From a virus, in IMG/VR virus record IMGVR_UViG_3300045391_004297, positions 13,037-77,036 of that record: a stretch of 64,000 nucleotides of DNA, one strand, 5' to 3'. The notes under the pieces are model-generated. The model did no database searches, was not told the origin of the DNA, and saw only the letters and a program-made list of their open reading frames with translations. Each line of letters opens with the position of its first letter. The stretch's first letter is position 1. This document shows, one piece after another, positions 1 through 57,621 of this stretch. Both the position numbers and the translations under genes were made by a program.

Positions 1-239
1 CCCTTGCGCTCTTTGATCTTGCCTCCTTCCTTTCAAGACCAACTTTACTCCCCCCTTGGGAGTCGGACTTTTCCGTAATGTCCGGATTTATCCTCTTTTA
101 GTAGGGCAAAATTTGTCCCCCTAAATGGCCCTATGTCCGGATAAAGGGGGGTAAAATAGGACATTCTGGGCAGGCTGGGGTTGGCACAAGATCGGGACTA
201 TGGGGTACATCCCCCTATACGGGCCTATATCGGACATAT

Positions 240-306
240 GGTATATGTGGTGTATAGGGTATATAGGGCATATATGGTACATATGTGGACATAGGGTATA
301 TGTGGT
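240..306. repeat. degenerate 9-bp tandem repeat GGY-RTATRK
   Basis: GGT/GGC at 240,249,258,267,276 separated by ATATGT,GTATAG,ATATAG,ATATAT, then phase slips; AT-rich non-coding end region. Confidence 0.75.
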
Positions 307-324
307 ATGTATGCACATACATAG

Positions 325-380
325 TATGTATGCACATATGTACTACATATGTGCATACATAGTACATATGCGCGCATATG
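325..380. repeat. perfect palindromes (18-bp arms with 1-nt centre; 16-bp palindrome)
   Basis: TATGTATGCACATATGTA-C-TACATATGTGCATACATA at 325-361; CATATGCGCGCATATG at 365-380. Confidence 0.9.
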
Positions 381-524
381 GTACAAAATCGCATAAATCC
401 CCCATATGGGGGTATAGCGGGACAAATCGGACATAGGGGGTATAGGGGGAAGAACTATATTATGTCCGGATTTAGTTGATTTGTTCCACGACGTCTCTGA
501 CTCACATTTGGGTGAAATTGAAGG

Positions 525-647
525 TGTCGATTTTCGTCACTCAAGAAAAGCAAAATATCAGATGTCGATTTTCGTCATAATGAGATCGCCCCGTGAGCGG
601 TGACGAGAGTCGTCAGGCTTGACAAAGATTGTGTGCTTCGCTATGGG
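525..647 (+). promoter_or_regulatory. 15-bp direct repeat pair plus possible promoter upstream of small terminase
   Basis: TGTCGATTTTCGTCA at 525-539 and 563-577; TTGACA at 619-624 with weak -10 (TATGGG) 17 nt downstream. Confidence 0.4.
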
Positions 648-678
648 GCATTAGGATGGTGTCGAGGAGGTGCATCTC

Positions 679-1011
679 ATGCCATCTGAGGAAGAGTGGG
701 AAGCGTGGGTTCCGCGTAAGGCGATCGAGGAGTTGACCGTTCGTCGAGCGCTTGCCGATATTGAAGACCCGGTGCGCATTGCCAATCAGTTGCTCAAGGA
801 AACGTTGCCGATCGCGGTAATGGGCATGACGCACATGGCGATTCATGAACCCAACGCTGCGCTGCGTTTTCAAGCGCAGAAGTACGTTATTGACCGTTCG
901 ATGGGCACCACGAATAATCCGACTGCCCGGCCTACCGATGACCGCCCGGCTTGGGAGAAAATTTTCGACAGCGTTGCTGTGGCGGCCGATGAGGTCGCTG
1001 AACACGAGTAG
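679..1011 (+). CDS. probable terminase small subunit
   Basis: GAGGAGG RBS before ATG 679; helical protein with R.QA.KY.IDR..G segment typical of TerS; first gene of packaging region. Confidence 0.55.
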   Translation: MPSEEEWEAWVPRKAIEELTVRRALADIEDPVRIANQLLKETLPIAVMGMTHMAIHEPNAALRFQAQKYVIDRSMGTTNNPTARPTDDRPAWEKIFDSVAVAADEVAEHE

Positions 1012-1170
1012 CCCGCTGTAGCTCATGCGAGCCCGCTGTGGGTTCCCCGAAGGGGAGGGTGGACATTCCCGACAGGGTGTCGTGTTTTTGGTGCTGAGCT
1101 GGTAGGATGTCGATATTCGACACTCTGCCACATCCTGGTCAATATTGCATGGTGGAGAGGACGTGAAAAA

Positions 1171-4868: not shown

Positions 4869-6395
4869 ATGGCCGCGCATCAACCCACACCGGGCGATGA
4901 AGAAGACAGCGAGCCGGAAGGTACGCCCACCCCAGAGGGTATGGAGACGCAGGCTGTTCGGGCCAAAAAACTGGAGCGGTTGTACAACATTGACAAGTTT
5001 CGGTACTTTGACCTGATTGGTTATAAGCCGCACCCGAAGCAGTTGTTGTTTCACCGGTCCACGGCGCGCTTCAAGATCCCGATTTGTGGGCGTCGATTCG
5101 GCAAATCCCAGATGGCGGCCAAAGAGTACGAGCCGTTGCTGCTGATTCCGAATCGACGATATTGGATTGTCGGGCCGACCTATGACCTGGGCGAAAAAGA
5201 GTTCCGGATTATCTGGAACGACATGATCATCAAGCTTGGCCTTGGCAAGGAAAAAGATGTCAAGCGGTCATATGCTAAGAAGCAGGGCGATCTATCCATC
5301 GAGTTTCCCTGGCGTACTCGTATTGAGGTTCGTTCGGCAGATCGACCGGAGAATCTGGTCGGCGAGGGTCTTCATGGCGTCATCATGTCCGAGGCCGCTA
5401 AGCACACCCAGGACACTTGGGATCGCTTTATCCGGCCATCCCTCACTGACTACCGTGGTTCGGCGATTTTCCCAACGACACCGGAAGGCCAGAACTGGAT
5501 CTACAACCTGTGGAAGATGGGTCGTGATCCGCAAGAGCCGGAGTTTGAGTCCTGGCAGTTCCCGAGTTGGGAAAACCCGTACGTCTACCCCAAGGGAAAG
5601 CTCGACCCGGAAATCCTGCTGACCATGCGCACCACTCCGAAAGAAGAGTTCCTTCAGGAGTATGCGGCGGACTTCACCTCATTTGCCGGTAAGGTGTATG
5701 GCGAGTGGGACGAAGCGGTGCACGTGCAAGAGGTCAAGTACAATCCGCTGCTGCCCAACTACATCGCTTTTGACTGGGGTTGGGCTGCCCCGATGGCCGC
5801 TGTGGAGTTTCAAATTGACAGCTTTGGTCGGTGCCGGGTGTGGCGGGAGCACTACAAAACACACACGCGGTTGAAGGACTTTCTCAACGAATTGAAAAGC
5901 CGGCCACAGCCGCCGGATTACCATTTGAATTTGACCTTTGGCGACGCTGCCGATCCTGAGGCTGTCGTTTCTGTCTCGGAAGACTTCGCGCCCTGTGTGG
6001 GCGACCCTCGCTCCAAGACCGGCACCCAGGGTGGGTCGTTGGAGTCTGGTAAGCGCGAAGGTATCGAGCTGGTCAAGGGTCTGCTAATGTTGCAGCAGGT
6101 CGATGAGGATGAGTTCGGCACGCCGATCGAGATGCCCTGGTTGACCGTGGATCATTCGTGTTACAACCTAATCCGGGAGTTCAATAATTACCGCAACCAA
6201 GACCCGGTGCGTGGGCAAGACCCACGAGAGCAAACCTTCAAAAAGGATGATCACGCCCTGGATGCGCTGCGTTACGGGTTGATGCATGTGCTGAAGCTCG
6301 GCGCCACCATGAGTTTAGGTGATGTGATGGATCTTTCGGATATGCATGACACGCCAGCTTCTGGCTACTTCACCACGAACAAGACCTTTGCTTGA
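4869..6395 (+). CDS. terL: terminase large subunit
   Basis: CGRRFGKS Walker A, GVIMSE Walker B-like, RuvC-like nuclease with FDWG and KKDDHALDALRY. Confidence 0.95.
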   Translation: MAAHQPTPGDEEDSEPEGTPTPEGMETQAVRAKKLERLYNIDKFRYFDLIGYKPHPKQLLFHRSTARFKIPICGRRFGKSQMAAKEYEPLLLIPNRRYWIVGPTYDLGEKEFRIIWNDMIIKLGLGKEKDVKRSYAKKQGDLSIEFPWRTRIEVRSADRPENLVGEGLHGVIMSEAAKHTQDTWDRFIRPSLTDYRGSAIFPTTPEGQNWIYNLWKMGRDPQEPEFESWQFPSWENPYVYPKGKLDPEILLTMRTTPKEEFLQEYAADFTSFAGKVYGEWDEAVHVQEVKYNPLLPNYIAFDWGWAAPMAAVEFQIDSFGRCRVWREHYKTHTRLKDFLNELKSRPQPPDYHLNLTFGDAADPEAVVSVSEDFAPCVGDPRSKTGTQGGSLESGKREGIELVKGLLMLQQVDEDEFGTPIEMPWLTVDHSCYNLIREFNNYRNQDPVRGQDPREQTFKKDDHALDALRYGLMHVLKLGATMSLGDVMDLSDMHDTPASGYFTTNKTFA

Positions 6396-6588: not shown

Positions 6589-6771
6589 TTGACCAGCCGT
6601 GCCGAACATCTGGCAGCCGCGTGTGGGGTCCTGTTCACCACAGCGGTGCTGGCGTATGTCACGAAAAAGTATCTACTCGATGTGCACCCATTACCCAGCA
6701 AACTTGTGTATTTGGCAAAATCGTGCAGACACTGGGTTGACTTAGGGGGTGTCGAGTATGACGACGATTGA
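6589..6771 (+). CDS. small membrane protein
   Basis: TTG start after AAGGGA, one hydrophobic helix; overlaps portal start. Confidence 0.4.
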   Translation: MTSRAEHLAAACGVLFTTAVLAYVTKKYLLDVHPLPSKLVYLAKSCRHWVDLGGVEYDDD

Positions 6772-8446
6772 GACCAGCGACGGGAAAATTGCTGATCTTG
6801 AGGCGTATGCGGCGCAGCGGCAGATGTCGCTGCAAGAGGCAGTTTCGGGCAAGTACCAGATTGTGGCGGCCAACCACGATCCGGCCAACGGTTCGTACGT
6901 CATCTTGGCCGACCAGTCGCAGAACATTGAGCCCGGGTTTGCCACTCGGGAGCTTGGTTATTCTTCGCCGAGTCCGTGGACGGCTTGGACCCGTGATGAG
7001 CGGGTGCCGGAGCTTCGGGACAAGATTGGCTTGCGCACCTACTACGACATGAAGCGGGCCGATGGCACGATTCGTGGGGCGTTGCGCTTGCTCAAAACGC
7101 CGATTCAGGCGGCTCGGTGGTTTGTTGAGCCCTACGATGACACCGCGCTGAACAAGTCCATCGCCGAGTTTGTCGAAGAGAACCTGTTTTTGTACCTGTC
7201 TACGCCATGGTCGCAGGTGGTCGAAGACGCGCTGTTGATGTGCGACTACGGGTACATGGCCTTTGAGAAGGTGTGGACCGAGCCTGGCTCAGATGCCGAT
7301 AAGGTCAAAGACGGCAAGCTTCGGTTGGGTAAGTTGGCTGCTCGCCACCCGATGGACATTCGGGAGTGGGTGTGGGACGAAAACGGTGGCCCGGATGGGT
7401 TCATCATGGAAAATATTTCCATCCAAGGTACCGGGAACATGCCCGGTCCGGCGTTGTCGAGCTTCGGCATCCCGAACGCAGCGGTCACCGGCAACTACAA
7501 CCAGTTCAACAACCCGACGTTTGACCCCAAAACGGTGACGATTCCGATCACCAAGGCGATCGTGTTCACCTTGGAGAAGGAAGCCGGGGATCTGCGCGGG
7601 GTGTCGATTTTGCGCAGTGCCTACAAGCACTACTACTACAAAGACACCATGTACAAAATCGACGCGATCCAAAAAGAGCGCCACGGTATTGGCGTGCCGA
7701 TCATTAAGATGCCGTTGGGTTTTTCCACCGATGATCGGGCACTGGCCGAGAACTTGGGGCGTAACCTGCGCACCAACGAACGGGCGCACATTGTCGTGCC
7801 GATGAACTGGGAAGTGGCCTTTGCCAAGTTGGAAGGTCAGCCGGTGGATTGTTTGAAATCCATCGAACACCACGACATGAAGATCAAGTCCAACATTCTG
7901 GCCCCGTTCATGGATGAGTCCAACGTGAACCCGGATTCCCTGGACGTGTACTACAAGGCGACCCGCTACATTGCTAACACGTTGTGCGACACCGTCAACA
8001 AGTACCTGATTCCGCAGTTGGTCGGGATGAACTTCGCTCGGGGCAAAAACCCGTGTCTTCGGGTGCGTCGCATTGGTGAAGAAGAGTCGTTGCGCACGTT
8101 GTCGTTTGCTTTCCGCAACTTTGTTGGTGCCGGGGCTATTCGTCCGGATGACCCGTTGGAGAAGTTCCTGCGTTCTGAGCTGGACTTGCCGCCTGCTGAC
8201 CCGGACACGGCTCGGATGCCACTTCCACCCGGTGGTGGGCAAGACCCGAACGCCATGCCTGCCGATGGTGGGGACAGTCAGCACCAGCAAAATACCCAAA
8301 CCAAAAAGAAGCCCGAACCGCAAGTCGTTGTCGATGGCGTGCCACATGCTCCACAGCCGTCTCGGGTTGGTCCGCCTCGACAGGCGAATACGCCACCGGT
8401 ACACACCGGCAAGAGCAACTCAAGCCGCGATAACTCCGGAGGTTAA
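6749..8446 (+). CDS. portal protein (DUF935/Mu gp29-like)
   Basis: follows TerL; GYMAFEKVW, G.SILRSAY.HYYYK, ERHGIGVP motifs. Confidence 0.9.
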   Translation: MSSMTTIETSDGKIADLEAYAAQRQMSLQEAVSGKYQIVAANHDPANGSYVILADQSQNIEPGFATRELGYSSPSPWTAWTRDERVPELRDKIGLRTYYDMKRADGTIRGALRLLKTPIQAARWFVEPYDDTALNKSIAEFVEENLFLYLSTPWSQVVEDALLMCDYGYMAFEKVWTEPGSDADKVKDGKLRLGKLAARHPMDIREWVWDENGGPDGFIMENISIQGTGNMPGPALSSFGIPNAAVTGNYNQFNNPTFDPKTVTIPITKAIVFTLEKEAGDLRGVSILRSAYKHYYYKDTMYKIDAIQKERHGIGVPIIKMPLGFSTDDRALAENLGRNLRTNERAHIVVPMNWEVAFAKLEGQPVDCLKSIEHHDMKIKSNILAPFMDESNVNPDSLDVYYKATRYIANTLCDTVNKYLIPQLVGMNFARGKNPCLRVRRIGEEESLRTLSFAFRNFVGAGAIRPDDPLEKFLRSELDLPPADPDTARMPLPPGGGQDPNAMPADGGDSQHQQNTQTKKKPEPQVVVDGVPHAPQPSRVGPPRQANTPPVHTGKSNSSRDNSGG

Positions 8447-8447
8447 G

Positions 8448-8687
8448 ATGGCAGAGGATCGGCCCCGCAAACCGTATCGTAAAGAGCGGGTTGTTTCGAT
8501 TCGGTTCAGCGAAGACGAACTACGCGGTTTGCGGGAACGGGCCGACAAAGCCCATATGAGCCTGTCGGATTACATCCGAACCCGAATGAACTACGATCCG
8601 TTGATGTACCGTACTTTTGTGCCCGCCCAATCCAACACCTACACGATTGGCACTTCTTCGGTTACCTCAACGTTCATTTACCAATGA
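8448..8687 (+). CDS. ribbon-helix-helix (MobC-like) DNA-binding protein
   Basis: VSIRFSEDEL..LRERA.KAHMSLSDYIR. Confidence 0.75.
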   Translation: MAEDRPRKPYRKERVVSIRFSEDELRGLRERADKAHMSLSDYIRTRMNYDPLMYRTFVPAQSNTYTIGTSSVTSTFIYQ

Positions 8688-8860
8688 CGTGGCTACCCGC
8701 CCAATGGCACATCCCGAGCTGACTACCCGCCGTACGCCATCCCCAGCGAGCTGACATGCCCCGGCCAAACACGAGCATCCCAAGGCACGCTTACTGACTT
8801 AACACGGCACCACTACCCACCTCTTGTCCACAGACCCCCGCATAAAGCCCAACGCTAGAC
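8686..8860 (+). repeat. periodic non-coding array 4
   Basis: TGAC-anchored units with GAC at 8686,8721,8753,8796; C every 5th base 8798-8828 (7); internal repeats CTACCCGCC and CGAGCTGAC. Confidence 0.7.
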
Positions 8861-8973
8861 CCCAAAAAATTTTTGCCTAAATCCGGAAACGTGTCCTTTT
8901 GGCACTTTCCGGATTTTGCATAGCAAGATCATCGATGTCATACATGACGCCCGCCCGACTGGAGGTTTTGTCG

Positions 8974-9334: not shown

Positions 9335-10543
9335 ATGGACAAAGGCGTTCTGTACGTTGTCGACCTGAACACCGTCACGCTGGATGAAAGTACCGATCAG
9401 ACAGCATCGTGGGTACACGCTTTGCCGCTTGGCGAGTACACCCACCCGGTGTTTGGCAAGATGAAGTACACCGCAGACAAGATCCGCGCATTTGCCGACA
9501 GCGTGAACGCTCGGATTCGCGGGATTGACCCCAGCATTAACATCATGCACGGCGCAAACGGCGGTGATGGTGAGGCTGCTGGTTGGGTCAAGAAAGCTGA
9601 CGCCCGCCCGGACGGCCTGTGGGTCTTTGTGGAGTGGACGAAGGCTGCGGCTGAGAAGATCAAGGAAAAGGCTTGGCGGTATTTCTCGGCCGAGTATCAG
9701 GACTCTTGGACAGATGCTACTGGCAAGAAGCACGACAACGTGTTTTTTGGTGGCGCGCTGACCAACCGTCCATACATGAAGAATTTGCTGCCGATCAACC
9801 TTTCCGAGGGTTCCATCGATGCGATGGTGGGAATGGCCGAACTGGTCGTTTCCCAGCGCCAGTTGTTCACCGAAGGTTCTGGCGGCAATCAGCACAACGA
9901 CAATACCTCGGAGGAGGTTGATGTGGATCTGAAGAAGTTGGTCGAGGCTCTTGGCCTCCCGGCGGAAACAACCGAGACCGAGCTTATTGCCAAGCTGTCT
10001 GAGTTGAAGCCGCCGACGACTACCCCTGTGGACAAGCCGAAGCCGCAAGTGCCTACGGTTCAGCTTTCGGAAGAGCTCAAGCAGCTCGCCGACAGCAACC
10101 CGATGGTCAAGGCCCTGCTTGACACGGTGGAAGCCCAGCACAAGTCCATTGCCGAGCACAACTTCGCCCTTCGCGAGGCAGACGTTGAGCGGCGCCTTTC
10201 GGAGTTTGACCGCTCCAAGATTGTGCTGACTCCGGTTGCCAAGGATCTGGTCCACGACTTTGCCATGGACCTGCCGATCGGGCTGACTGAGCGGTTCTGG
10301 CAGATTTTGGAAAACATGCGCTCTTCGACCGCCATGATGGTGGAGTTGGGTGAGCGGGCCGGTACCTCGGTTCGTTACGGTCGGGCCAAAGACCCGGTGA
10401 GCATGTTCATGGACGAGGCCAACAAGGTTGCTGCCGAGTCGGGTGGCAAGGTTTCGCTGGCCGAGGCGATGGAGCAGGTCGCGGCAAACGACCCGAAGCT
10501 CTACGAGCAGTACCGTGTGGCTAACTACTCGTTCCGCGACTAA
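9335..10543 (+). CDS. capsid maturation protease/scaffold (Mu gpI-like)
   Basis: AAGWV...DGLWVFVEWT, YFSAEY, GGALTNRPY; coiled-coil C-terminal scaffold. Confidence 0.85.
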   Translation: MDKGVLYVVDLNTVTLDESTDQTASWVHALPLGEYTHPVFGKMKYTADKIRAFADSVNARIRGIDPSINIMHGANGGDGEAAGWVKKADARPDGLWVFVEWTKAAAEKIKEKAWRYFSAEYQDSWTDATGKKHDNVFFGGALTNRPYMKNLLPINLSEGSIDAMVGMAELVVSQRQLFTEGSGGNQHNDNTSEEVDVDLKKLVEALGLPAETTETELIAKLSELKPPTTTPVDKPKPQVPTVQLSEELKQLADSNPMVKALLDTVEAQHKSIAEHNFALREADVERRLSEFDRSKIVLTPVAKDLVHDFAMDLPIGLTERFWQILENMRSSTAMMVELGERAGTSVRYGRAKDPVSMFMDEANKVAAESGGKVSLAEAMEQVAANDPKLYEQYRVANYSFRD

Positions 10544-11022: not shown

Positions 11023-11997
11023 ATGGCAGTTTACAATGTGACTGGTTCCGGTAACGTCCACATTGACCAGGTTCTGACCAACATTTCGGTTGGTTGGCCG
11101 ACCCAGGGTCTTGCTGGCGCGGCGCTGTTCCCGGCCGTGAGCGTGCGGAAGCAGTCTGACAAGTACTACATCTTCGGCCGTGAAGGTTGGCTCCCTGAGC
11201 ACGACCTTCGGGCTCCGGGTACTGAGGCCAACGAAATCAGCGGTGCCGCTGTTTCGCTGGACACGTACTACGCCCAGGAGCACGCGCTCCAGATTGCGGT
11301 TACTGACGAGGAGCGGGAAAACGCGGATTCTCCGCTTTCTCCGGACCGCGACGGTACGCTGCTGGTGACCTCGAAGATCCTGCTCGGTCGGGAACGTGCG
11401 TTCCAGACCATTTCCACCACAGCGGCCAACTACGCCTCCGGTAACACGGTGACGCTTTCTGGTACTTCGCAGTGGAATGACTACGCCAACTCCGACCCGA
11501 TCTCGGATCTGCGTTCGGCGAAGATCGCGATTAACGGCCGTATCTTCCAGGACCCGAACGTTGCGGTCATTCCTTACCAGGTCATGGTGAAGCTGGAAGA
11601 CCACCCGGACTTCCTGGAGCGGATCAAGTACTCCGAGCGGGCGATTTTCTCGCCTGAGTTGCTTGCTTCGGTTCTCGGGTTCGAGCGGGTTATCGTGCCC
11701 GGTGTGGGGATCAACAGCGCCCACCTTGGCGCGACTGCTTCGCTTGGTTACCTGTGGGGCAAGGATGTCGTGGTTGCCTACGTGCCGGGTGGTCCCGGTT
11801 TGAAGGTTCCGGCCTACGGGTACGAGTTCGTCTGGAACAACCAGACTGTCGACCGCTGGCGCGAGGACAAGCGGAAGTCGGACGTTATCCGGGTTTCGCG
11901 GTACTACGACGTGAAGCTTGTTGCTCAGGGTGATGCGGGTACATCCGACGCCGGTAAGTCGATCGCTGGTTACCTCATCAAGTCGGCGGTTGCGTAA
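11023..11997 (+). CDS. major capsid protein
   Basis: position, 324 aa, ID.VLTNISVG, FP.V.V.KQS, SDPI.DL motifs. Confidence 0.9.
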   Translation: MAVYNVTGSGNVHIDQVLTNISVGWPTQGLAGAALFPAVSVRKQSDKYYIFGREGWLPEHDLRAPGTEANEISGAAVSLDTYYAQEHALQIAVTDEERENADSPLSPDRDGTLLVTSKILLGRERAFQTISTTAANYASGNTVTLSGTSQWNDYANSDPISDLRSAKIAINGRIFQDPNVAVIPYQVMVKLEDHPDFLERIKYSERAIFSPELLASVLGFERVIVPGVGINSAHLGATASLGYLWGKDVVVAYVPGGPGLKVPAYGYEFVWNNQTVDRWREDKRKSDVIRVSRYYDVKLVAQGDAGTSDAGKSIAGYLIKSAVA

Positions 11998-38104: not shown

Positions 38105-38578
38105 TTACGGAAGCATGGAGTTCGAGCTGCTCTTCACGGTGGTGCCATCCGCCTTGCGGTAGCCGGTCACCTTGAATCGATCCGGAAGCTCACGCTTGGC
38201 CTTCGTGTCGTAGCCCGCCAGCAACTTACGACCAATAACCACGAGTGACTTGCCCAGCAGTTCCTCATCGTCGGGCAGCTCCATCTCACCAGGCGTCACT
38301 TCGTAGCCCAACGCCTTGAGCAGCATAGCCAACGAGGAAAGCGTACCTTCCTTATCGGTTTCGAAGAGCATCACATTGGAGAAGACACTGTTGCCAGCGT
38401 ACTTACCATCTTGCACCGTGAAGCGAAGATTCCAGAACGGCTTGCCCTCGTTCACGCCGCCCGGCTTCACCGTGGCGGTCTTCACATCGGTGATGTTACA
38501 CAGGTAGGAGCCACTCGGAATAATTTCCCGAGCAGTCGATTCCGCTTCACTTTGGGTGAAGTTAACCTTGAGACCCAT
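38105..38578 (-). CDS. ssDNA-binding protein (DUF669-like)
   Basis: IP.G.Y...ITDV, RFTV.DGKYAG..VF; adjacent to Sak4-like ATPase. Confidence 0.75.
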   Translation of the reverse strand: MGLKVNFTQSEAESTAREIIPSGSYLCNITDVKTATVKPGGVNEGKPFWNLRFTVQDGKYAGNSVFSNVMLFETDKEGTLSSLAMLLKALGYEVTPGEMELPDDEELLGKSLVVIGRKLLAGYDTKAKRELPDRFKVTGYRKADGTTVKSSSNSMLP

Positions 38579-39320
38579 GATTCTCCCTGTTCTTGGTTAG
38601 CTCATTCCAGATCTTTTCCATCGTTGGATCTTCCATGGTCTGTGGAAGATTGTTCGATCTGTCTTTCGCTACAGTATCCTCTGTTTGACTGCACAACAGA
38701 ACGCGTTTGTTCTCGCCGTCGATCTCCTTTGCGTAGAGGTAGACCACAATATCCAGGAAACCACTGACCTCATCGGCCAGCTTCCCCGAAAGGGAAGGCT
38801 TCCGTTTCATTGCGCCTGTACGCTGGTTTTTATCGGTTTTCACAAGGGCGGTGAATATCGTGTTCATTGGGAGGTCACGGAAGGCCCGGACGAATTTACG
38901 TGTTTGTTCGAGGTTAATGTTCCATTCACGCAAGCCTGGGACTTCAGCACTACGCTCTTCATATTCTTGAATGAGCTTGAGCATAATGCTGTCCATTGAC
39001 ATCTTTTGTACTTCAGTCAGAGAATCAACAATCAGGGTCGTAAAGTCATGTTTGCCATCAAAGAGGGCTTCGTAGACTTTTTGCATGTCTTGCCATGACT
39101 TGACCCGGACGGTCTCGACTTCCGGATAGATGTCCCGAAGGGTGAGCGTACCACCCTCCACGTCGATGAGCAAGGTGCGCCGCATCTGAGGTACGGCATC
39201 GGCTGAACCAGCTAGTCGAGTTTTACCAATCCCAGATTCGCCATAAACAAGCATGTTGACTCTGGGTTCAGCTTGACTTACCCGATAGATTGGAAGTTCA
39301 GCGATTTTGGGTAGACTCAT
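38562..39320 (-). CDS. Sak4-like (AAA_24) ATPase/recombinase
   Basis: YGESGIGKT, LIDVEGG, IVDSLTE. Confidence 0.85.
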   Translation of the reverse strand: MSLPKIAELPIYRVSQAEPRVNMLVYGESGIGKTRLAGSADAVPQMRRTLLIDVEGGTLTLRDIYPEVETVRVKSWQDMQKVYEALFDGKHDFTTLIVDSLTEVQKMSMDSIMLKLIQEYEERSAEVPGLREWNINLEQTRKFVRAFRDLPMNTIFTALVKTDKNQRTGAMKRKPSLSGKLADEVSGFLDIVVYLYAKEIDGENKRVLLCSQTEDTVAKDRSNNLPQTMEDPTMEKIWNELTKNRENHGSQG

Positions 39321-48380: not shown

Positions 48381-48408
48381 CTTCCTTTCGGCCGAAATTA
48401 GTGATGCG

Positions 48409-48499
48409 TGCCCCGACCTGGAATCGAACCAGGAACACCTACGCCTAAAGGCCAACGGGATTGGTTACCCGCCGTGCTCTGCCATTGAGCTATCGGGGC
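48409..48499 (-). ncRNA. aberrant tRNA-like RNA
   Basis: GCCCCGA/TCGGGGC acceptor, GCTC-AATGGCA-GAGC D arm, CCTGG-TTCGATT-CCAGG T arm; 7-bp anticodon stem, 8-nt loop, extra hairpin. Confidence 0.75.
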
Positions 48500-48506
48500 G
48501 ACCTTG

Positions 48507-49394
48507 CTAAACGGCTTTCCAGTCGGTGACTTCGTACTTGCCGTAACCCTGCGAGCGCGAAGCGCCGATACCCTGCTGCTCCCCGGTGAGCCACAGCAGG
48601 GCCCACTCTTTGTCGGAGAAGTCGTAGTCGGTGGTCACGTGGAATTCCAGCACCGCGTTTTCCACGTACTCTTCGTACTGGATGCCAGAACCCCGGAAGG
48701 TGTGCACGAAGCGCTGGTTGATCCCAGTGGGCTCACCCTTGACCGGCTCGTTGAGGTAGATGCGCGTCTCGGGCACGAACACGTGCTCAGCGAAGAACGA
48801 CAATGTGCCCTTGCGGGTCGGACCCCAACGCTCCTTGGGCCAACGCACATTCGCCGCTTCCTTGATGGCGGCCTTGGCCTGGCGACCCTCGATGTACAGG
48901 CCGTTTTTGGGATCACGCTTGAACCCGTTGAGGTGCTTGTTCATGTTGACGATCTTGGTGGCTTCGTTGATGTCCACGCCCTTGTCGAGCATGACCTCAG
49001 CGACCATTTCGCGGATGACGTCTTCCTTGTCCACGCCAAGCTTGGTCTTGAGCCAACCTTCGGCAACCTTCGGGTCAGACGGGGTACCACCGGCGATGAC
49101 CGGGACCGTCAACTGGATGCGGAAGTTGTACGGGTACGCGGTCGGGCGGTACTGTTCGAAGACAGATGCCACAGTGGGCTGTCCTTTCTGGATACGGTCA
49201 ATCAGTTCTTGGTTTGGTGCTGGTGGATTTGGATCGACCCGATTGAACCAAACCTCCTCAACAACAGGTTTCGTCGTTGTTTTGCGTTTTGGCTTCGGCT
49301 TTTCCTCGATCTCAGGTTCCACTGTTTCGAGTTCGGGATCGACAGCTCGGCTGGACCGATTGCTGCGCGTCCTGGCGGTGACGAATTCCACCAT
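48507..49394 (-). CDS. stand-alone Cas7/RAMP-like protein
   Basis: LYIEGRQAKAAIKEAA (RAMP IPG..KG..R equivalent), thumb-like GINQRFVHTFRGSGIQYEE, C-terminal Gly loop GIGASRSQGYGKYEV. Confidence 0.8.
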   Translation of the reverse strand: MVEFVTARTRSNRSSRAVDPELETVEPEIEEKPKPKRKTTTKPVVEEVWFNRVDPNPPAPNQELIDRIQKGQPTVASVFEQYRPTAYPYNFRIQLTVPVIAGGTPSDPKVAEGWLKTKLGVDKEDVIREMVAEVMLDKGVDINEATKIVNMNKHLNGFKRDPKNGLYIEGRQAKAAIKEAANVRWPKERWGPTRKGTLSFFAEHVFVPETRIYLNEPVKGEPTGINQRFVHTFRGSGIQYEEYVENAVLEFHVTTDYDFSDKEWALLWLTGEQQGIGASRSQGYGKYEVTDWKAV

Positions 49395-50102: not shown

Positions 50103-50129
50103 TTACCCAGGCAAGCCCAACCAGACCGG
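50103..50129 (-). repeat. GGY-NN pentamer run in operon leader
   Basis: minus strand CC GGT CT GGT TG GGC TT GCC TG GGT AA. Confidence 0.6.
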
Positions 50130-50919: not shown

Positions 50920-51195
50920 TTCAACTGAACTCCTCAAAGCTTAAAGCCATGGCCTTACTCCTCCACATTTCCCGACGCGCTTTTCGGTACTCAGATTCGG
51001 CTAACCCACCACTACCATCGGGGTACGTCTCCCCCCGCCTGGGGCCATGGACATTTAGAAAGGGGCCGGGGCGCTGACACCCGGATCTTCCGCGTACTTA
51101 GCTCGGCGCCAAGCCATTCCGGAAACGGTGCTCTATTTCATCGGGGAGTTAACCGCATTTGGCAACGTCCGAATCAGCTTTTGAGCTACTCCCAG

Positions 51196-51267
51196 TGACC
51201 CGCCTGGGACTCGAACCCAGAACACGCGGATTAAAAGTCCACAGCTCTGCCATTGAGCTAGCGGGTC
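51196..51267 (-). tRNA. tRNA-Lys(UUU)
   Basis: full cloverleaf, loop CTTTTAA. Confidence 0.92.
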
Positions 51268-51441
51268 ATGTTGCAATCATGACAAATGCGATGAACAACG
51301 TGAGTGCGGCCAGAAAGATCCCAGCAATGGCTATGAGCATCGGTTCCACTTTGGACGGTCGGCGATGCGACCGAATCATGTGTGGCCGGTAATTGTCATG
51401 ACTCACGACTTGTCCGCCTCACTTACGTGCTTGGTAGTACC

Positions 51442-51954
51442 TCAACCAACCTTTTTCCAAGTTCCGCACCGCTTCGTCTCAAAATCCTGACCCCTCTTCA
51501 GGGTCACTCGCAGATTCCCGCCACCAAAGTGGTTGTTGACAATCGATCCCAGATCCTGATTGGTACCTGACTTGTAGATTGCCCAATAACAGTTACTCGC
51601 AGCGCCAATGGTTTGATAGTTGCCGACCGGGAAGTCTTCGCCAACCGTCCACGTTCCATCGACAATGGTTGGTGGCGGCGGCGGTGGTGGTGGGGGAGGC
51701 GAGATGCTTTTTGTCGGAGACGGTGAAGGTGAAGGACTCGGTGATTGCGTTTGTAGTGGCGCCGCTGCCGCATGGGTAGCAGTAGGAGTCGGTGTTGGCT
51801 TGGCACTTGGTGCCATAAGGGCAACAACTGAGACAATGCCACAAAGTACCAGTAGTCCAACAGCAGCAATAATAACTAGAACCAACCACATGGGGAGCTT
51901 CTTCTTGGGTGCTGGCATACCTCCAAGATGTTGGTTGTCATATGAATAACTCAT
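51442..51954 (-). CDS. membrane-anchored Pro-rich protein
   Basis: TM, PT/PS linker, DGTW.VGED...G.Y..CYW domain. Confidence 0.75.
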   Translation of the reverse strand: MSYSYDNQHLGGMPAPKKKLPMWLVLVIIAAVGLLVLCGIVSVVALMAPSAKPTPTPTATHAAAAPLQTQSPSPSPSPSPTKSISPPPPPPPPPPTIVDGTWTVGEDFPVGNYQTIGAASNCYWAIYKSGTNQDLGSIVNNHFGGGNLRVTLKRGQDFETKRCGTWKKVG

Positions 51955-51965
51955 CGTATTGTCTT

Positions 51966-52226
51966 TCAGGTAGTTGGGTCAGTGTAGATTACCCAGTCCT
52001 TGGCAAGGATGTCCCACTGATTTGGAATCCACGGGAATGTTACATCTGGGCTGACGAGGTAAAGATAGGGTACTGTTAGCGGACCTTGCGGGTTGGCCAA
52101 ACCAATTCGGCAACCCCGCTTTGTCCAACTTTCATGGTCGACGTTTCGGCGAACGAGGTGACCGTTGCGCATTTGCTGCAACGCCCACCCAAAGTCTCCG
52201 CCCGTAGTTACTGGTTGATTATCCAC
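51966..52226 (-). CDS. DUF2829/Tad2-like anti-defence protein
   Basis: FGWAL..MRNG..VRR..W, PW.PNQ.DILA.DW. Confidence 0.8.
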   Translation of the reverse strand: MDNQPVTTGGDFGWALQQMRNGHLVRRNVDHESWTKRGCRIGLANPQGPLTVPYLYLVSPDVTFPWIPNQWDILAKDWVIYTDPTT

Positions 52227-52227
52227 G

Positions 52228-52300
52228 AGCCTCGCGTAGGACTTGAACCCACAACCGCCGCATTACAAGTGCGGTGCTCTACCAATTGAGCTAGCAAGGC
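52228..52300 (-). tRNA. tRNA-Thr(UGU)
   Basis: full cloverleaf, loop CTTGTAA. Confidence 0.92.
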
Positions 52301-52303
52301 AAA

Positions 52304-52375
52304 CCTACCCAATAGCCGAATAGCGGTTCAGGCAGCTTCCCCACGGAGGTTAGGGAAATCCGGCTATTGGGTAGG
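52304..52375. repeat. 15-bp inverted repeat
   Basis: CCTACCCAATAGCCG ... CGGCTATTGGGTAGG. Confidence 0.85.
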
Positions 52376-52383
52376 AGCATTTC

Positions 52384-53451
52384 TTACGCCTCGAACTTCA
52401 CCCGGCGACGACGCAACACCATGACCAGGGCAATACCCAACCCAAGGGCGATTGCACCAGCACCAGCGTAGTAACCAGTGTTCGGGCCGGTCACCGGCAG
52501 GCCACCAGGCGTCGAGTGCGACACCGTAGGCACCGGAACAGACGTCGATGTGCTCGGCGAAGGCGAGGTGCAGTTCTTCGGCGCCGCCCACACGTGGTCA
52601 ATCACATGCTTGATCAGCGTGCGCTTCGGGCCTTCCGTGGTGTAGTACGTGACCGTGGTCTTGCCCGATTCAGGCTTGACAGTCACGTCCACCGTGGAAT
52701 TGGCGTCAACGACAACCTTACCGCCGTTGGCCTCAACCCCCGAAACGACGTATACCGCCTTGGCGCCGTAGGCATCGTTGGCCAGGCTGACCACTGTGGA
52801 ACCGTCACACTTGTCAGTGAACACCGGCGGTTTCGGGCAAGCCTGCCGCGATGAGCCAGTGATGTCACCCTTGTTGCCGCCATGAGCGCGATCGGCGTTG
52901 AGCCAGTACTCGTTGCACAGCTTGTAGATCCAAGCCCATTCGAACTTCAGCTCGCCAACGGTGGAAGTTTCCCCGTTTTTGAACAGTGCCTTGATCCAGT
53001 TGGTTGTGTCAAGCTGGTTGGTGTTGGTCGGAGCAGTCCAACCCTGCCAGTTTGCCGGGGCCTCGAACACGCCATTGACCGAAAGTCCGGTCTTGACGTC
53101 CAGCGCACCGCTGAAGTTGCCCTTCATGCCATCGAGCATGACATGACCCATCGGCGAAGTTGTGCCAGTTGTCACGAAGTGCCCGTTGTCCCACAACTTG
53201 ATGCTGTAGAGCCAGCCGGGAACGATGACGTCTTTCTTCGGACCACTGTCCACGAGGTGACACACTTCGTACTTGCGGGTGAAGGTGTCTTTCGCCCAGT
53301 TTCCGGCAGTGCCAGAATCGACCCGATCTGTGATCGTGACCGATCCGGTCTTGCAATCCGGCAGTTCTTGCGCGTTAGCGGTACCAATCAGTGACAGAGC
53401 ACCAATTGTTCCGAGGACCGCCGCGCTGATTGCTGCGAGGGTACGCTTCAC
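52384..53451 (-). CDS. secreted LPXTG sortase-anchored surface protein
   Basis: signal peptide ending ANA; LPVTG + TM + RRRR tail. Confidence 0.85.
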   Translation of the reverse strand: MKRTLAAISAAVLGTIGALSLIGTANAQELPDCKTGSVTITDRVDSGTAGNWAKDTFTRKYEVCHLVDSGPKKDVIVPGWLYSIKLWDNGHFVTTGTTSPMGHVMLDGMKGNFSGALDVKTGLSVNGVFEAPANWQGWTAPTNTNQLDTTNWIKALFKNGETSTVGELKFEWAWIYKLCNEYWLNADRAHGGNKGDITGSSRQACPKPPVFTDKCDGSTVVSLANDAYGAKAVYVVSGVEANGGKVVVDANSTVDVTVKPESGKTTVTYYTTEGPKRTLIKHVIDHVWAAPKNCTSPSPSTSTSVPVPTVSHSTPGGLPVTGPNTGYYAGAGAIALGLGIALVMVLRRRRVKFEA

Positions 53452-53484
53452 TTGGCTTCCTTTACGGAAAATGGATGAAATTAT

Positions 53485-53694
53485 TTAGTTGTTAATCGTG
53501 GTCAGGAAGTTCTTCCAGTCTTGCCGCGTGAACGACAACATCGGACCCTGACGGTCTTTGGTGTCCCGAACGTAAACGGTGTCGTCAGCCTTGACCTCGA
53601 CGCAGTTCATCGGTGAACGAGTGGACTTGCGCCAGTGGTACTTGACTTCCACGCATTCTCCTTCACCCATGCTGCGAGAACTCTTACGCCACAT
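53485..53694 (-). CDS. DUF397 (BldB-like) protein
   Basis: WRKSSRS...CVEV twice, VRDTKD..GP.L.F...W..F. Confidence 0.85.
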   Translation of the reverse strand: MWRKSSRSMGEGECVEVKYHWRKSTRSPMNCVEVKADDTVYVRDTKDRQGPMLSFTRQDWKNFLTTINN

Positions 53695-53992
53695 CGGTGG
53701 GCACCTCCTTGATGAAATCGGTATAATCCGGTGGCGGTTTGGGACCAATATAGAACAAGCATGAACAGTTGCTGTACGGGGTATGGCTATGTTCGCGAAA
53801 GTACTGTACCGTGCACTTACCCGTGCCCCCGTCCTTATGAGACGAGAACAAATGGTCGCAGTCACAGGTGTATTTCACCCGCTCGTCCGGTTTGGCCAAG
53901 CGTTTGCCCTGCCACATGCCGTATCGAACGAAGCCGAAACCTACCACTGTACCCGCGATAAGACCGAGATAGAACATGGTTGGTTGACTCAT
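53684..53992 (-). CDS. membrane protein with Cys/His motif
   Basis: N-terminal TM; C.CDH...H...GKC...C.C. Confidence 0.6.
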   Translation of the reverse strand: MSQPTMFYLGLIAGTVVGFGFVRYGMWQGKRLAKPDERVKYTCDCDHLFSSHKDGGTGKCTVQYFREHSHTPYSNCSCLFYIGPKPPPDYTDFIKEVPTDVA

Positions 53993-54171
53993 TTCTCAGT
54001 TTCATTTTGTGTTTTGGCTATCATGTGGTTCAGCCAACGTTTCTCGGCGTCGAGCTGACTGAAGCACTTACCCGAGTCATACCGGCCGCACGAGCAACGC
54101 GCTCTGTAGATGGGGGAAACATCGCCCACGTAGTCGAATTCATCCAGTAGGAGTTCGTGCGTCGTGGCCAT
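53989..54171 (-). CDS. small CxCG protein
   Basis: RARCSCG...H. Confidence 0.55.
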   Translation of the reverse strand: MATTHELLLDEFDYVGDVSPIYRARCSCGRYDSGKCFSQLDAEKRWLNHMIAKTQNETEK

Positions 54172-54526
54172 ATTGGGTGACCAATCGAAGATGGTATTCG
54201 CGTTCCTCGGTAGCACGTGCCTGGGAGGTTAGCGGGTCACTGAGCCAACCGCAAGCGCAGAGCTGGAAGTAATAGTAGCCAACCTTGAAACGCTTCATGA
54301 CGTGGACGCGCAGGTGCTCGTGCCTGATAGTCCACATTTGCACCAGGTGCTCACGAAGATCATACGCCGCGTCGATCTTGCGCTCATGTTCGACACCTTG
54401 CCATGGGCACATGCATTCGGCGTAGTACGGTCCGTCTTCCTCGCCCCAGATTTCGTAGAGGTAATGCTCACGCTTGGACTCTTTGAGCAACCAGTAGTGG
54501 TCCAGGAGCTTTCCCTTATTTGGCAT
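54140..54526 (-). CDS. tandem CxCGW protein (paralog of 54516)
   Basis: starts MPNKGKLLDH; two CxC..H units. Confidence 0.65.
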   Translation of the reverse strand: MPNKGKLLDHYWLLKESKREHYLYEIWGEEDGPYYAECMCPWQGVEHERKIDAAYDLREHLVQMWTIRHEHLRVHVMKRFKVGYYYFQLCACGWLSDPLTSQARATEEREYHLRLVTQYGHDARTPTG

Positions 54527-54899
54527 CTCGAACCGCCTTACTCTGGGCTCGATACGCCGCATCGGCATGTTCCCTGAATCGGTCGTGTGCGTGCTCAGTC
54601 TTGGACGAGATTGTGCACCAACCACATTCGCAAATGATCGCGAACTTGGTAGCGGTATCGTCCCAATCGCCGGACCAGGCATGGTGGTACTTGCCATGGA
54701 GTTTCCAAGCAAGCCCCATGTGGTACGCCATCATGCTGACCACTCCGGTGAAGGTCGGCTCTATGGCTTCCATCTTGCATCGGCAAATGGCCCGGTATCT
54801 CCCTTTGTCATGGAGAATTTGCTTTAAGTAGTGCGATTCACCATCTATGACAAGCCGGGTTTCGTTATGGTGATCCAGAAGTTTTCCCTTGTTGGGCAT
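54516..54899 (-). CDS. tandem CxCGW protein
   Basis: starts MPNKGKLLDH; two CxC..H units. Confidence 0.65.
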   Translation of the reverse strand: MPNKGKLLDHHNETRLVIDGESHYLKQILHDKGRYRAICRCKMEAIEPTFTGVVSMMAYHMGLAWKLHGKYHHAWSGDWDDTATKFAIICECGWCTISSKTEHAHDRFREHADAAYRAQSKAVRDAK

Positions 54900-54929
54900 C
54901 GTTGGCTCGTTTCATGGGTTGTCATTATT

Positions 54930-54956
54930 GAGGGGTTCACCCGAAGGTGAACCCCT
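54930..54956 (-). terminator. GC-rich hairpin after tRNA cluster
   Basis: AGGGGTTCACC-TTCG-GGTGAACCCCT. Confidence 0.7.
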
Positions 54957-55007
54957 GTTTTTAGTGTCCGTCACAAGAGATTCTTCGGGATCTCGTGAGC
55001 CACACCG

Positions 55008-55080
55008 TTGGCGAAGCAGGACTCGAACCTGCAACACCGGCCGTGTGAAAGCCGTGCTCTACCACTTGAGCTATTCGCCA
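55008..55080 (-). tRNA. tRNA-Val(CAC)
   Basis: cloverleaf, loop TTCACAC. Confidence 0.88.
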
Positions 55081-55139
55081 TGGGGCGGAAGGATACGATC
55101 TTCCGCCTTTTATCTGTTGGTGACGTGGAGGCGTCTCCG

Positions 55140-55212
55140 CTGACCAGACAGGACTCGAACCTGTAGCCATCCGGTTAACGGCCGGAAGCTCTGCCAATTG
55201 AGCTACTGGTCA
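55140..55212 (-). tRNA. tRNA-Asn(GUU)
   Basis: cloverleaf, loop CCGTTAA (C33). Confidence 0.88.
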
Positions 55213-55220
55213 ATTTCAGG

Positions 55221-55293
55221 TGAGCGAAGTGGGACTTGAACCCACGACCGAGGAATTATGAGTTCCCTGCTCTACCTGCTGAGCTATTCGCCC
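55221..55293 (-). tRNA. tRNA-Met/Ile2(CAU)
   Basis: cloverleaf, loop CTCATAA. Confidence 0.9.
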
Positions 55294-55434
55294 TATCTTG
55301 TTTGCACTATATCTGGGTCACTGCAACCACAATCACCCAAATCTGCGCCGAAATCAAGGATAATAATGGCGGCGAGAATGACGGTGATGACGCGTTGCCA
55401 CCAGTTCATGCGCTGGAATGTTTGACCAATCACG

Positions 55435-55506
55435 TGACCCACCTCGGACTCGAACCGAGAACTCCCGACTTAAGAGGACGGTACTCTACCATTGAGTTAG
55501 CGGGTC
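55435..55506 (-). tRNA. tRNA-Lys(CUU)
   Basis: cloverleaf, loop CTCTTAA, T.T mismatch in anticodon stem. Confidence 0.88.
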
Positions 55507-55765
55507 GAAGCCGGTAGTCCCGAAAGGGAAATGGCTACGGGGGGAGCCCATCAGCTCCGGGACTACCGGGGTAACACGGCGACTGTCGCTGCTGATTCAT
55601 GAGCGGAGCAACGAGAAAACTGCGCCTGCCGTAGATCTCCAAGGAAGTTCGATAGAACAACAAACGGCAACACAACACGACAATCGCCAGCTTACCCCAA
55701 CAGTAGGACACCCCTGGAAGAGAACGAAACGTCGGCATCGTGCTCAAATGCCTACTGTTGGGTAG

Positions 55766-55839
55766 TACCCAAGGTGGGAGTCGAACCCACAAACACCAGA
55801 TTTTGAATCTAGCGGCTTTGCCAGTTTGCCTACTCGGGT
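55766..55839 (-). tRNA. tRNA-Leu(CAA), short variable region
   Basis: loop TTCAAAA; Leu-type D arm; variable region TGTTT. Confidence 0.85.
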
Positions 55840-55993
55840 AGGGCGGTACTGAGCATCGGCAAGGGAATGGGACGCAGGACCGTATTAACCGACCAATCGA
55901 ACTGAACGACCGAATTCTGCTGCGACTCACATTCGATCAAGTTCGCTCAATTGTTTGCTCAGTACCTCTGGGCGTTCCTAGAATTGCCCATTG

Positions 55994-56065
55994 TGCCCTC
56001 GGGAGGAATCGAACCTCCATCTCAGATTCCGTAGATCTGCGTCGTGTCCATTGGACCACGAAGGC
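55994..56065 (-). tRNA. tRNA-Arg(ACG)
   Basis: cloverleaf, loop CTACGGA. Confidence 0.9.
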
Positions 56066-56184
56066 TTGGCGGGAGCCGGGCCGTATCCTGACCCGGCCCC
56101 CTGTAGGTGAAGTAAGCAAAATCGGTGTTCAAGACCGATGCTGTATTTGCAGTACAGCTGCTTCAGCCCACCCCATGAGAAAAA

Positions 56185-56335
56185 TTTGAGATCTACACCA
56201 GCGGCGTTTAACCAACATGCTCAATCATAATACCTGGCGGATTTCCGCTATCCCACCCCGCCATGAAGAGGCGAGGGCCAGATTTGAACTGGCGTTTCCA
56301 GAGTGTGTGGCTGTTGGACTCGACCTGGTGCTGGG
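56185..56335 (-). ncRNA. YrlA-like circularly permuted tRNA mimic, copy B (ends approximate)
   Basis: order T arm, 3' acceptor CCTCGCC, loop TCTTCAT, 5' acceptor GGCGGGG, D arm GGAT/ATCC; CCAGG/TCTGG closing stem. Confidence 0.75.
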
Positions 56336-56369
56336 GCTTTTTGTGGGATTCAGTCTCGGGCAAGAGTCT

Positions 56370-56505
56370 GAGACTGAGTGGGATGCCTAGCTGCAAGCCA
56401 CTGCACCCCGGCATGAAGAGCCGGGGGGAAGAGTCGAACTTCCGACGGCTAGGATAATGGTCCCAGTTGACGATGATTTCGGGTGAACCCCTACTTTACT
56501 CAGTT
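56370..56505 (-). ncRNA. YrlA-like circularly permuted tRNA mimic, copy A (ends approximate)
   Basis: T arm GGAAG/CTTCC, CCCCGGC-TCTTCAT-GCCGGGG, D arm GCAG/TTGC, GCTAGG/CCTAGC closing stem. Confidence 0.75.
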
Positions 56506-56710
56506 TGAGTTTGTGCCCTCTCCCGAGGGAGTTTAGGTGGTGGGTGAGGTAGTACAAATCAGTCTACCATTGGTCTCTTACGAGACGGCCTCAGTTACCC
56601 CTGGCGACAAATCCAGGCCCACCCAAGTTTGTGGCGGCAGTGCTACCAGCTCAACACTCTATCTTGTACACCGGTTCGGCACTTTTATCTAGTGTTAGGC
56701 CACCAAAAAA

Positions 56711-57445
56711 CTACTCGCCGAGCAAGTAGTCGAAGATCGCCTTGCCGACCGGAACCTCGACCACATCGGTCTGGTTGGCCTGCTCCCGAGCGTACTTCAC
56801 GGCCTTGCCCAGCTTCTCCACCTTCTCGCGAAGCCGGTTGATGCGCTGCTGCGACACCGCGCCGGAGTACTTCACCGTGGACCAGGTACCGACGATCACG
56901 TCCTCGAAGTACATCTCCACCTGCGCCGGATGCCGATCGGTTGCCTCGGCCTTGACGTGGTTTCGCGGAACCTTCTTGGTTCGGGTGGTCTTGATCGGAT
57001 CGGTGGCGTACGCGGCGGTTGTCTCGTCGTAGTGCCAGTCCTCGGTCGGGTCAAGCACCGGAATGGCCTTGATGATCGCGGCCAAGTCGTTGATCTGCTT
57101 TTCCAGGAACAGCAGGTACGTGACCGGCGCATTCTTGACCAGTGTGGTGCCGTCAACCACCACATCGGCAAGTGCCCGAGTGTTGGTGGCGTCCTTGGCG
57201 AAGGTCACATCGAAGAGCTTGACCATTTCGTTACGGACGTCGTTGAGCACGTCTTCGGCGCGAACCTGCAACTTCGTGGATTCGGCCGGGAGCTGATCGC
57301 CGTCGTCATCCTTGGGCGTGTAGTTGCGCGAGATGCCCGCAAGAGGCTCCTTCTTCTGGAGCGTCTTGTAGAACTTGTTGGTCTCGGTGTAGGTGGACGT
57401 CTTGACGCCCTTCTCTACGGCCAAGATCTGGTTGAGCTTTGGCAT
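56711..57445 (-). CDS. conserved hypothetical protein (KLNQI.AVEKG family)
   Basis: recognisable widespread bacterial family; HVKAEATDRHPAQVE motif. Confidence 0.85.
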   Translation of the reverse strand: MPKLNQILAVEKGVKTSTYTETNKFYKTLQKKEPLAGISRNYTPKDDDGDQLPAESTKLQVRAEDVLNDVRNEMVKLFDVTFAKDATNTRALADVVVDGTTLVKNAPVTYLLFLEKQINDLAAIIKAIPVLDPTEDWHYDETTAAYATDPIKTTRTKKVPRNHVKAEATDRHPAQVEMYFEDVIVGTWSTVKYSGAVSQQRINRLREKVEKLGKAVKYAREQANQTDVVEVPVGKAIFDYLLGE

Positions 57446-57549
57446 TTTGAGGTTTATCCCTTGTTAGTTTGAATGGTGCAAAGAGCATGGGCATGACGAT
57501 ACTATGGAGTTCCGTCGACTGACTTTTGCTTAAGTAGATCATGCCCAAG

Positions 57550-57621
57550 TGGCGGGGCTGGGAGTCGAACCCAGATCGTACGGCTTATGAGGCCGCCAGC
57601 ATACCATTAGCCCACCCCGCA
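57550..57621 (-). tRNA. tRNA-Met(CAU), fMet-like
   Basis: loop CTCATAA; unpaired 1:72 (T.C) but lacks three consecutive G-C pairs. Confidence 0.8.

Follow-up and report, generated by a model that had tools for sequence, protein, structure and literature searches.

Array 4, a 175-nt tract (8686-8860) in the head region of this soil phage's genome, is a genuine but partly degenerate member of a family of arrays in which GAC is followed by in-phase NNNNC pentamers, and it holds one clean unit. It is the weakest of about eleven such arrays in the genome. We consider it rather probable that array 4 is a short, partly decayed "solo" representative of these GAC-punctuated arrays, that the arrays are the cognate nucleic-acid partner of a lone Cas7-like protein, and that array 4 is a VIPR-like guide-RNA array. 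Taken alone, array 4 adds little. The system matters more: a very large and highly conserved family of lone Cas7-like phage proteins, to which arrays of a design unlike that of the VIPR systems of 2026 are strand-specifically tied.

Position of array 4 in the head module

The source record is a 92,387-bp IMG/VR virus with direct terminal repeats. The stretch analysed here (the window, 64,000 nt) corresponds to its bases 13037-77036. Array 4 forms the first part of a 286-nt non-coding gap (8688-8973) in a Mu-like head module on the plus strand. The gap contains no ORF and is flanked by a small ribbon-helix-helix (RHH) gene and a DUF6582 gene, both on the plus strand (Table 1). The RHH gene carries GGAGG 5 nt ahead of its ATG, and its TGA stop codon (8685-8687) overlaps the first GAC of the array. 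The array lies in a block of C/G skew (8625-8904, skew 0.27) that is C-rich and G-poor on the sense strand of its neighbours. The block starts already within the RHH gene, and an exact 10-nt repeat, CCCGCCCAAT (8622-8631 and 8696-8705), joins the low-complexity 3' end of that gene to unit 1.

Table 1. Coordinates of array 4, its units, the related arrays and neighbouring or associated genes (window positions)
Feature	Position	Strand	Details
Four array blocks, head region	1.7-2.2, 4.6-4.9, 6.3-6.6, 8.6-8.9 kb	+
Seven array blocks, two genome arms		-	C-rich on minus strand; most long ORFs of the arms also minus
Large terminase	4869-6395	+	head module
Portal	6749-8446	+	head module
Small RHH gene, 79 aa, NikA-like/DUF6290	8448-8687	+	Pfam PF21983 NikA-like E=1.1e-8; DUF6290 E=1.9e-4
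Unit 1, degenerate	8686-8720	+	GAC GTGGC TACCC gccca ATGGC ACATC ccgag ct; 5.4 bits
Unit 2, degenerate	8721-8752	+	cT-GAC TACCC gccgt ACGCC ATCCC cagcg agct; family head CTGACTACCC; 3.9 bits
Unit 3, fair	8753-8795	+	cT-GAC ATGCC CCGGC CAAAC acgag CATCC caagg CACGC ttact; 8.9 bits
Unit 4, sole clean unit	8796-8832	+	cT-GAC TTAAC ACGGC ACCAC TACCC ACCTC TTGTC caca; 14.9 bits
Decayed array end	8833-8860	+	GAC ccccg cataa AGCCC AACGC ta GAC; negative matrix score
A6T5 tract, then long hairpin	8864-8916		arms 8879-8889 and 8906-8916, with inner pairs
DUF6582/phrog_16160 gene, 114 aa	8974-9318	+	GGAGG at 8961-8965
Head protease	9335-10543	+	head module
Major head protein	11023-11997	+	head module
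Cas7/RAMP-like (Vipr-like) protein, presumed partner of all arrays	48507-49394	-	40 kb from array 4

A long hairpin follows the array on its 3' side. Its inverted repeat (I1) is complementary at 11 of 11 positions, was present in both the MFE and the centroid folds, and has A/U-rich flanks on both strands. Together with the A6T5 tract it is possibly a bidirectional terminator that closes array 4; a simple terminator scan of the gap made no call on the 8879-8916 hairpin. The promoter scan of the gap returned no plus-strand promoter and a single weak minus-strand match (8941-8913). Apart from the 3' hairpin, the predicted RNA fold of the gap was no more stable than that of shuffled sequences (z=-1.0), which fits a protein-coated single strand.

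Arrays were absent between the portal and protease genes at 29 viral (IMG/VR) and 30 metagenome loci with related head modules, whose portals are 27-70% identical and several of which are the same contigs counted in both sets. A blastn search against cultured phages gave no match. Only one relative locus (L010) carries both the RHH and the DUF6582 gene; there the two genes are about 47 nt apart with no array between them. Another locus, with DUF6582 only (L055), also lacks an array at the corresponding site. From these comparisons array 4 is a lineage-specific insertion into the intergenic gap. Since related head modules lack arrays, it is the Cas7-like gene that the arrays accompany, and not the genes of the head. 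Array 4 shows that arrays can drop into intergenic gaps of an otherwise conserved head module.

Other features of the window were noted in passing. An Rfam search over the window reported tRNAs only, and nine standard tRNA genes (Lys x2, Thr, Val, Asn, Met x2, Leu, Arg) cluster at 51195-57621 on the minus strand. AT-rich tandem repeats at 236-385, with periods of 9-19 nt and Tandem Repeats Finder (TRF) scores of 49-75, bear no relation to the pentamer arrays. The motif AAGATC recurs in the terminal arrays and at 8924; it was set aside as too common genome-wide to be meaningful at array 4.

The array family in the genome

The blocks of this family are long, non-coding, C-rich and G-poor. All of them are co-oriented with the local genes, in the head region as in the two arms. 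Their unit design can be written y-GAC w-A-w-n-C (NNNNC)4. Units span 29-35 nt with a mode of 29-30 nt, and the phase is reset at each GAC. In each pentamer one C is fixed and, weakly, two.

The largest arrays are found at the two ends of the genome, beyond the window (1-1150 and 91580-92387), where they extend into the direct terminal repeat, and the same units are present at both ends. A relative (G002) has a 1.7-kb array at its terminus too. In complete relatives the units are gathered in one or two large clusters or stand at the genome end. The scatter of units through the head module of the present phage looks unusual.

Array 4 as a member of the family

A sequence-only reading of this region had described an array with GAC anchors at 8686, 8721, 8753 and 8796 and two shared 9-mers. 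All four anchors were found at these positions, and both 9-mers recur, CTACCCGCC at 8693 and 8723 and CGAGCTGAC at 8715 and 8747. The run of C in 5-nt phase that it placed at 8798-8828 also exists (8798, 8803 ... 8828), but the seven C residues make six steps and not the seven it counted.

The units were scored with a weight matrix derived from the other arrays of this phage, array 4 being left out of training (Table 1). Unit 4, at 8796, has six consecutive pentamers in phase. In unit 3, five of the eight pentamers are in phase. Unit 1, when read from a mutated head, GGC at 8691, is a paralogue of unit 2. The unit lengths are 35, 32, 43 and 37 nt, and none keeps the regular 29-30 nt of the family. 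A CRISPR-type array, with identical direct repeats of 24-40 nt and unique spacers, was also considered, and no such repeats were found in array 4.

General searches for repetition gave little signal. TRF reported no repeat at array 4, and the region did not stand out when Fourier power at period 5 was taken over 60-nt windows. The best self-alignment was at the margin of significance against dinucleotide shuffles (P about 0.01-0.06); its score was matched by 15 of 734 windows of equal size (2%). Against composition-matched shuffles, neither the longest in-phase run of C (7; P=0.17) nor the lag-5 autocorrelation of C (P=0.37) was significant, and period 6 likewise yielded a run of seven. This is the outcome, non-significant periodicity after correction for composition, that the sequence-only reading itself had named as refuting its array, and by that standard the claim of bare periodicity fails. 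In composition, C makes up 42%, G 19% and T 13% of 8686-8860, and C makes up 27% of the whole window.

These figures agree with the notion of a composition-biased spacer in which the two 9-mers and the seven in-phase C arose by chance. We regard this as quite improbable in view of the tests that were fixed beforehand from the other arrays of the phage. Counting the five pentamers after each GAC, 19 of 25 had C in phase against 43% expected (P=0.006), and the resulting fraction of 0.76 falls inside the range of arrays 1-3 (0.65-0.90). GAC followed by at least six NNNNC pentamers occurs with P=0.018. Three CTGAC heads are present where 0.44 are expected (P=0.004). The head consensus yGAC wAwnC (CTGACTAYCC) is represented in array 4 by TGACTACCC at 8720 and TGGCTACCC at 8690, and the head TGACTAYCC is common to array 4 and arrays 2 and 3, with 43 matches against 18.7 expected. 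Strong C/G skew is moreover confined to a handful of blocks, of which array 4 is one; every other long block among them is a clear array. Thus the array stands as a member of the GAC/NNNNC unit family, and falls as a generic tandem repeat.

The sole serious rival to a guide-type array is that array 4 descends from a GAC/NNNNC array, is no longer used and is kept as a spacer between the RHH and DUF6582 genes. Three of its four or five units are degenerate, and one of about five scores well on the family matrix. Its G content exceeds that of arrays 1-3 (12-16%), its periodicity is not significant unless anchored, and the sites in L010 and L055 do without it. However, the 8796 unit, with its CTGAC head and unbroken phase, equals the units of the strong arrays. 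Published vrRNAs are often internally degenerate as well, and the C/G skew of the block is fully kept. Abandonment is accordingly an unlikely explanation, though one to be taken seriously.

Relationships among the units

Growth by unit duplication and divergence, the origin proposed in the sequence-only reading, is moderately supported for units 1 and 2 and does not extend to units 3 and 4, which show no such relationship. Both shared 9-mers are mostly family punctuation. CTGAC is the consensus unit head, and TACCC is the commonest first pentamer, found in 115 of the 1,158 units (10%) of all fetched phages. Beyond this, units 1 and 2 share a residue specific to the pair. GCC follows the head in both, and CGAG precedes CTGAC at only two of 214 array CTGAC sites, both in array 4 (units 1 and 2). 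The two units have an identical pattern of hits and misses of the in-phase C. At the variable positions they agree at 12 of 20, which places them in the top 0.6% of the 9,533 unit pairs in the genome. This pair-specific residue points to common descent, and a reasonable reading of the alignment is that units 1 and 2 are diverged local duplicates.

The same tendency was seen across all phages examined. Adjacent units were identical at 7.15 of 20 positions on average and non-adjacent units at 6.46 (Mann-Whitney p=5e-13). As neighbours are more alike, local duplication is a plausible general mode of growth of GAC/NNNNC arrays. For the evolution of such arrays, array 4 offers the lesson that they appear to grow by local duplication of units and then to decay.

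RHH proteins commonly bind direct repeats, and the repeats of array 4 begin at the stop codon of the RHH gene. This raised the idea that they are operators or iterons, two 30-nt direct repeats bound by a dimer of the NikA-like/CopG type. We rejected this very improbable reading. CTGACTAYCC recurs in arrays with no adjoining RHH gene, relatives that have the RHH gene (L006, L010) lack such repeats, and the repeats lie downstream of the gene and not upstream.

The Cas7-like protein and its linkage to the arrays

The presumed partner is encoded on the minus strand in a distant part of the window, and no array adjoins its gene in this phage. The protein has 1,560 homologues at E<=0.001, nearly all from uncultured sources. 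The best 120 of these 1,560 are all at least 61% identical to it, are mostly about 217 aa long and belong to no Pfam family. Its AlphaFold model reached a pLDDT of 68.6. In a Foldseek search of the PDB with this model, the matches listed were all effector chains of type VII, type III-A Csm or type III-E Cas7-11/gRAMP systems, with E about 5e-6 and a probability of 1.00 but TM scores of only 0.3-0.5. From the modelled structure the protein is predicted to have a Cas7/RAMP fold. When it was compared by hhalign with the 195-aa protein of Escherichia phage SUSP1, the glycine-rich C-terminus aligned without reaching significance (E=0.18).

The linkage between gene and arrays was evident in other phages. 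Across 313 kb from 29 IMG/VR phage loci that carry a homologue of the Cas7-like gene, GAC units followed by at least four NNNNC pentamers numbered 526 on the sense strand of the gene and 64 on the other strand. The units mostly formed one cluster that ended directly upstream of the gene. Arrays are likewise linked to the Cas7-like gene in two Logan contigs (L065 and L066).

This linkage also bears on the possibility that array 4 is a transcription-polarity element, a C-rich, unstructured Rho-loading (rut-like) tract or similar that tunes how much transcription passes from the portal and RHH genes into those for the protease and capsid, maybe masked by a coat of Cas7-like protein. A C-rich, G-poor and unstructured tract is the signature of a rut site. 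The composition of array 4 and the weak fold of its RNA match that signature, it lies on the sense strand between a stop codon and a hairpin, and all arrays follow the local gene direction. However, a rut site needs neither GAC punctuation nor a 5-nt phase. The strict linkage to the Cas7-like gene in 29 phages would be left unexplained, and the arrays there mostly stand upstream of that gene and not between the genes of an operon. We judge a polarity function of array 4 to be improbable.

Several observations were made around the Cas7-like gene. The linkage holds as well in the cultured Microcystis phage Mae-JY09, a cyanophage, in which very regular GAC+(NNNCC)6 units (PP395641.1, about 38460-38850; L097, 4736-5120) directly follow an unannotated Cas7-like homologue (WWT39994.1). 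The same two genes lie downstream of the Cas7-like gene in the present phage (46888-49394, minus strand) and in two relatives (L062, 10001-12637; L065, 10001-12274). The shorter encodes about 56 aa and matches DUF7167 weakly in L065; the longer, of about 407-432 aa, belongs to no Pfam family. Both are candidates for accessory (Vap-like) genes. In this phage the small ORF is separated from the Cas7-like gene by an odd tRNA-like gene (48408-48499), to which ARAGORN assigned the 4-base anticodon "acca". A few kb upstream of the Cas7-like gene, the same two relatives encode a TROVE/Ro60 and vWA protein (L062, 2854-4494; L065, 2314-3933), with Band_7 and DUF397 genes nearby. The ORF upstream of the Cas7-like gene has a short G-anchored run, ACCGG TCTGG TTGGG CTTGC CTGGG, on the sense strand of its leader (50105-50129, minus strand). 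By a rough estimate, several pentamer runs as short as this are expected by chance in each genome.

Comparison with VIPR and other Cas7-based systems

VIPR systems consist of Vipr, vrRNA and Vap, and the best studied is the type II system of Escherichia phage SUSP1 (10.64898/2026.04.26.720920; 10.64898/2026.04.26.720927). In these systems a lone small RAMP protein with a single RRM, a G-loop and a thumb works with vrRNAs of 9-16 YNNGG pentamers and an invariant structured 3' tail, whose arrays flank the vipr gene. The variable NN bases serve to read the DNA, skipping 1 nt (10.64898/2026.04.26.720920; 10.64898/2026.04.26.720927; 10.64898/2026.10.15.759431). The VIPR preprints also give the alternative consensus forms NNNGG, YNNNG and NNNNG, mention staggered arrays and describe vrRNAs as often internally degenerate. 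Solo vrRNAs away from vipr have been described in phages and satellites (10.64898/2026.10.15.759431). Non-canonical 5-nt arrays of the forms GAC/NN, CAC/NN and WGT/NN were found by entropy periodicity (10.64898/2026.10.21.760802). In the SUSP1 sequence (KT454805.2) we found that the YNNGG runs enclose two small genes and share their strand.

The system described here resembles VIPR in several respects. A phage carries a lone small protein of predicted RAMP/Cas7-like fold, with no other Cas protein in the part of this phage that was examined. The non-coding tracts have a strict 5-nt period, in which a single position of each pentamer is conserved and the bases in between vary. In the 29 relatives, though not in this phage, the arrays are intergenic and lie beside the protein gene.

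It also differs in several ways. The fixed C lies on the sense strand of the protein gene, whereas the repeats of SUSP1 are G-rich on the vipr strand. A period of five with C on the sense strand corresponds to NNNNG only if the RNA is antisense. Units have 5-6 pentamers (eight in unit 3, with misses) and GAC resets the phase, in contrast to the 9-16 repeats published. There is no conserved structured 3' tail; no common element follows the units, and a single hairpin follows the whole array. The arrays here are dispersed over the genome, and 40 kb separate array 4 from the protein gene. We suggest that array 4 works like a VIPR array, as a variant of that kind, and do not call it a proven member.

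The solo vrRNAs (10.64898/2026.10.15.759431) are similar in being guide-type pentamer arrays away from any vipr gene. They are, however, canonical GGY/NN arrays with tails, some of them on elements without vipr, whereas the present phage keeps its Cas7-like gene and has its arrays among late structural genes. The non-canonical arrays (10.64898/2026.10.21.760802) are similar in having a period of five, a motif that is not GGY and a Vipr-like fold encoded nearby. They repeat one fixed trinucleotide in each pentamer, about ten times in all, whereas GAC appears here once per unit of about 30 nt. Class 1 crRNAs bound by Cas7 proteins (Csm3/Cmr4, type VII Cas7) offer the fold predicted here, and a short 5' tag followed by a guide in fixed register, with one protomer per step, would be common to both. 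The step here would be 5 nt and not 6, the periodic base is sequence-specific, and there is no repeat-spacer array, Cas6 or adaptation gene.

Proposed mode of action, strand and targets

The mechanism that we propose is based on analogy with the published VIPR systems and with Cas7 backbones. The C-rich strand being the sense strand, the gap would most simply be transcribed along with the head genes. Cas7-like protomers may then bind the unstructured C-rich RNA, one per pentamer, with each GAC setting their 5-nt register. They would hold the periodic C and expose the variable bases. The resulting small guide-like ribonucleoproteins might recognise foreign DNA, such as that of a rival phage or a satellite. 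Within array 4, the unit at 8796 and perhaps that at 8753 look competent for this role, and units 1 and 2 would be diverged duplicates.

Searches for targets gave no positive signal. With the 34 units of this phage and two 20-base rules, matches in 0.86 Mb of fetched phage DNA were no better than those of reversed controls. With 220 units from all phages and eight pairing rules (5:5, 5:4 and three-base with 0-2 skips), the 0.86 Mb again gave no excess over reversed controls, and a pool of this size is far too small to exclude targets or to count against a guide function. Exact scans of IMG/VR with the 8796 unit under the 5:5 and 5:4 rules returned 0 matches.

As for the strand, a fixed C in the sense orientation of the Cas7-like gene means either that the RNA is antisense or that the recognised motif differs from that of VIPR. 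Read in antisense, the units become (GNNNN)5-GTC, a repeat tract with a very short 3' mark, and so come nearer to the arrangement published for vrRNAs. The arrays are, however, co-oriented with the Cas7-like gene and with all genes around them, which favours the C-rich sense strand as the RNA and GAC as a 5' tag. A further-reaching proposal, which we advance tentatively and hold to be on the doubtful side, is that the Cas7-like clade uses sense-strand, C-anchored RNAs that are cut or read in units of about 30 nt, each a 5' GAC tag with five pentamers. Their guide architecture, and probably their code, would be distinct from those of the GGY/NN vrRNAs. Units embedded in the late structural transcript, such as that at 8796, would yield guides only late in infection, and they might serve in addition as polarity signals masked by protein. 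Should the sense strand be the RNA, this clade would have a new recognition code, and the range of CRISPR-related RNA-guided machines would be wider.
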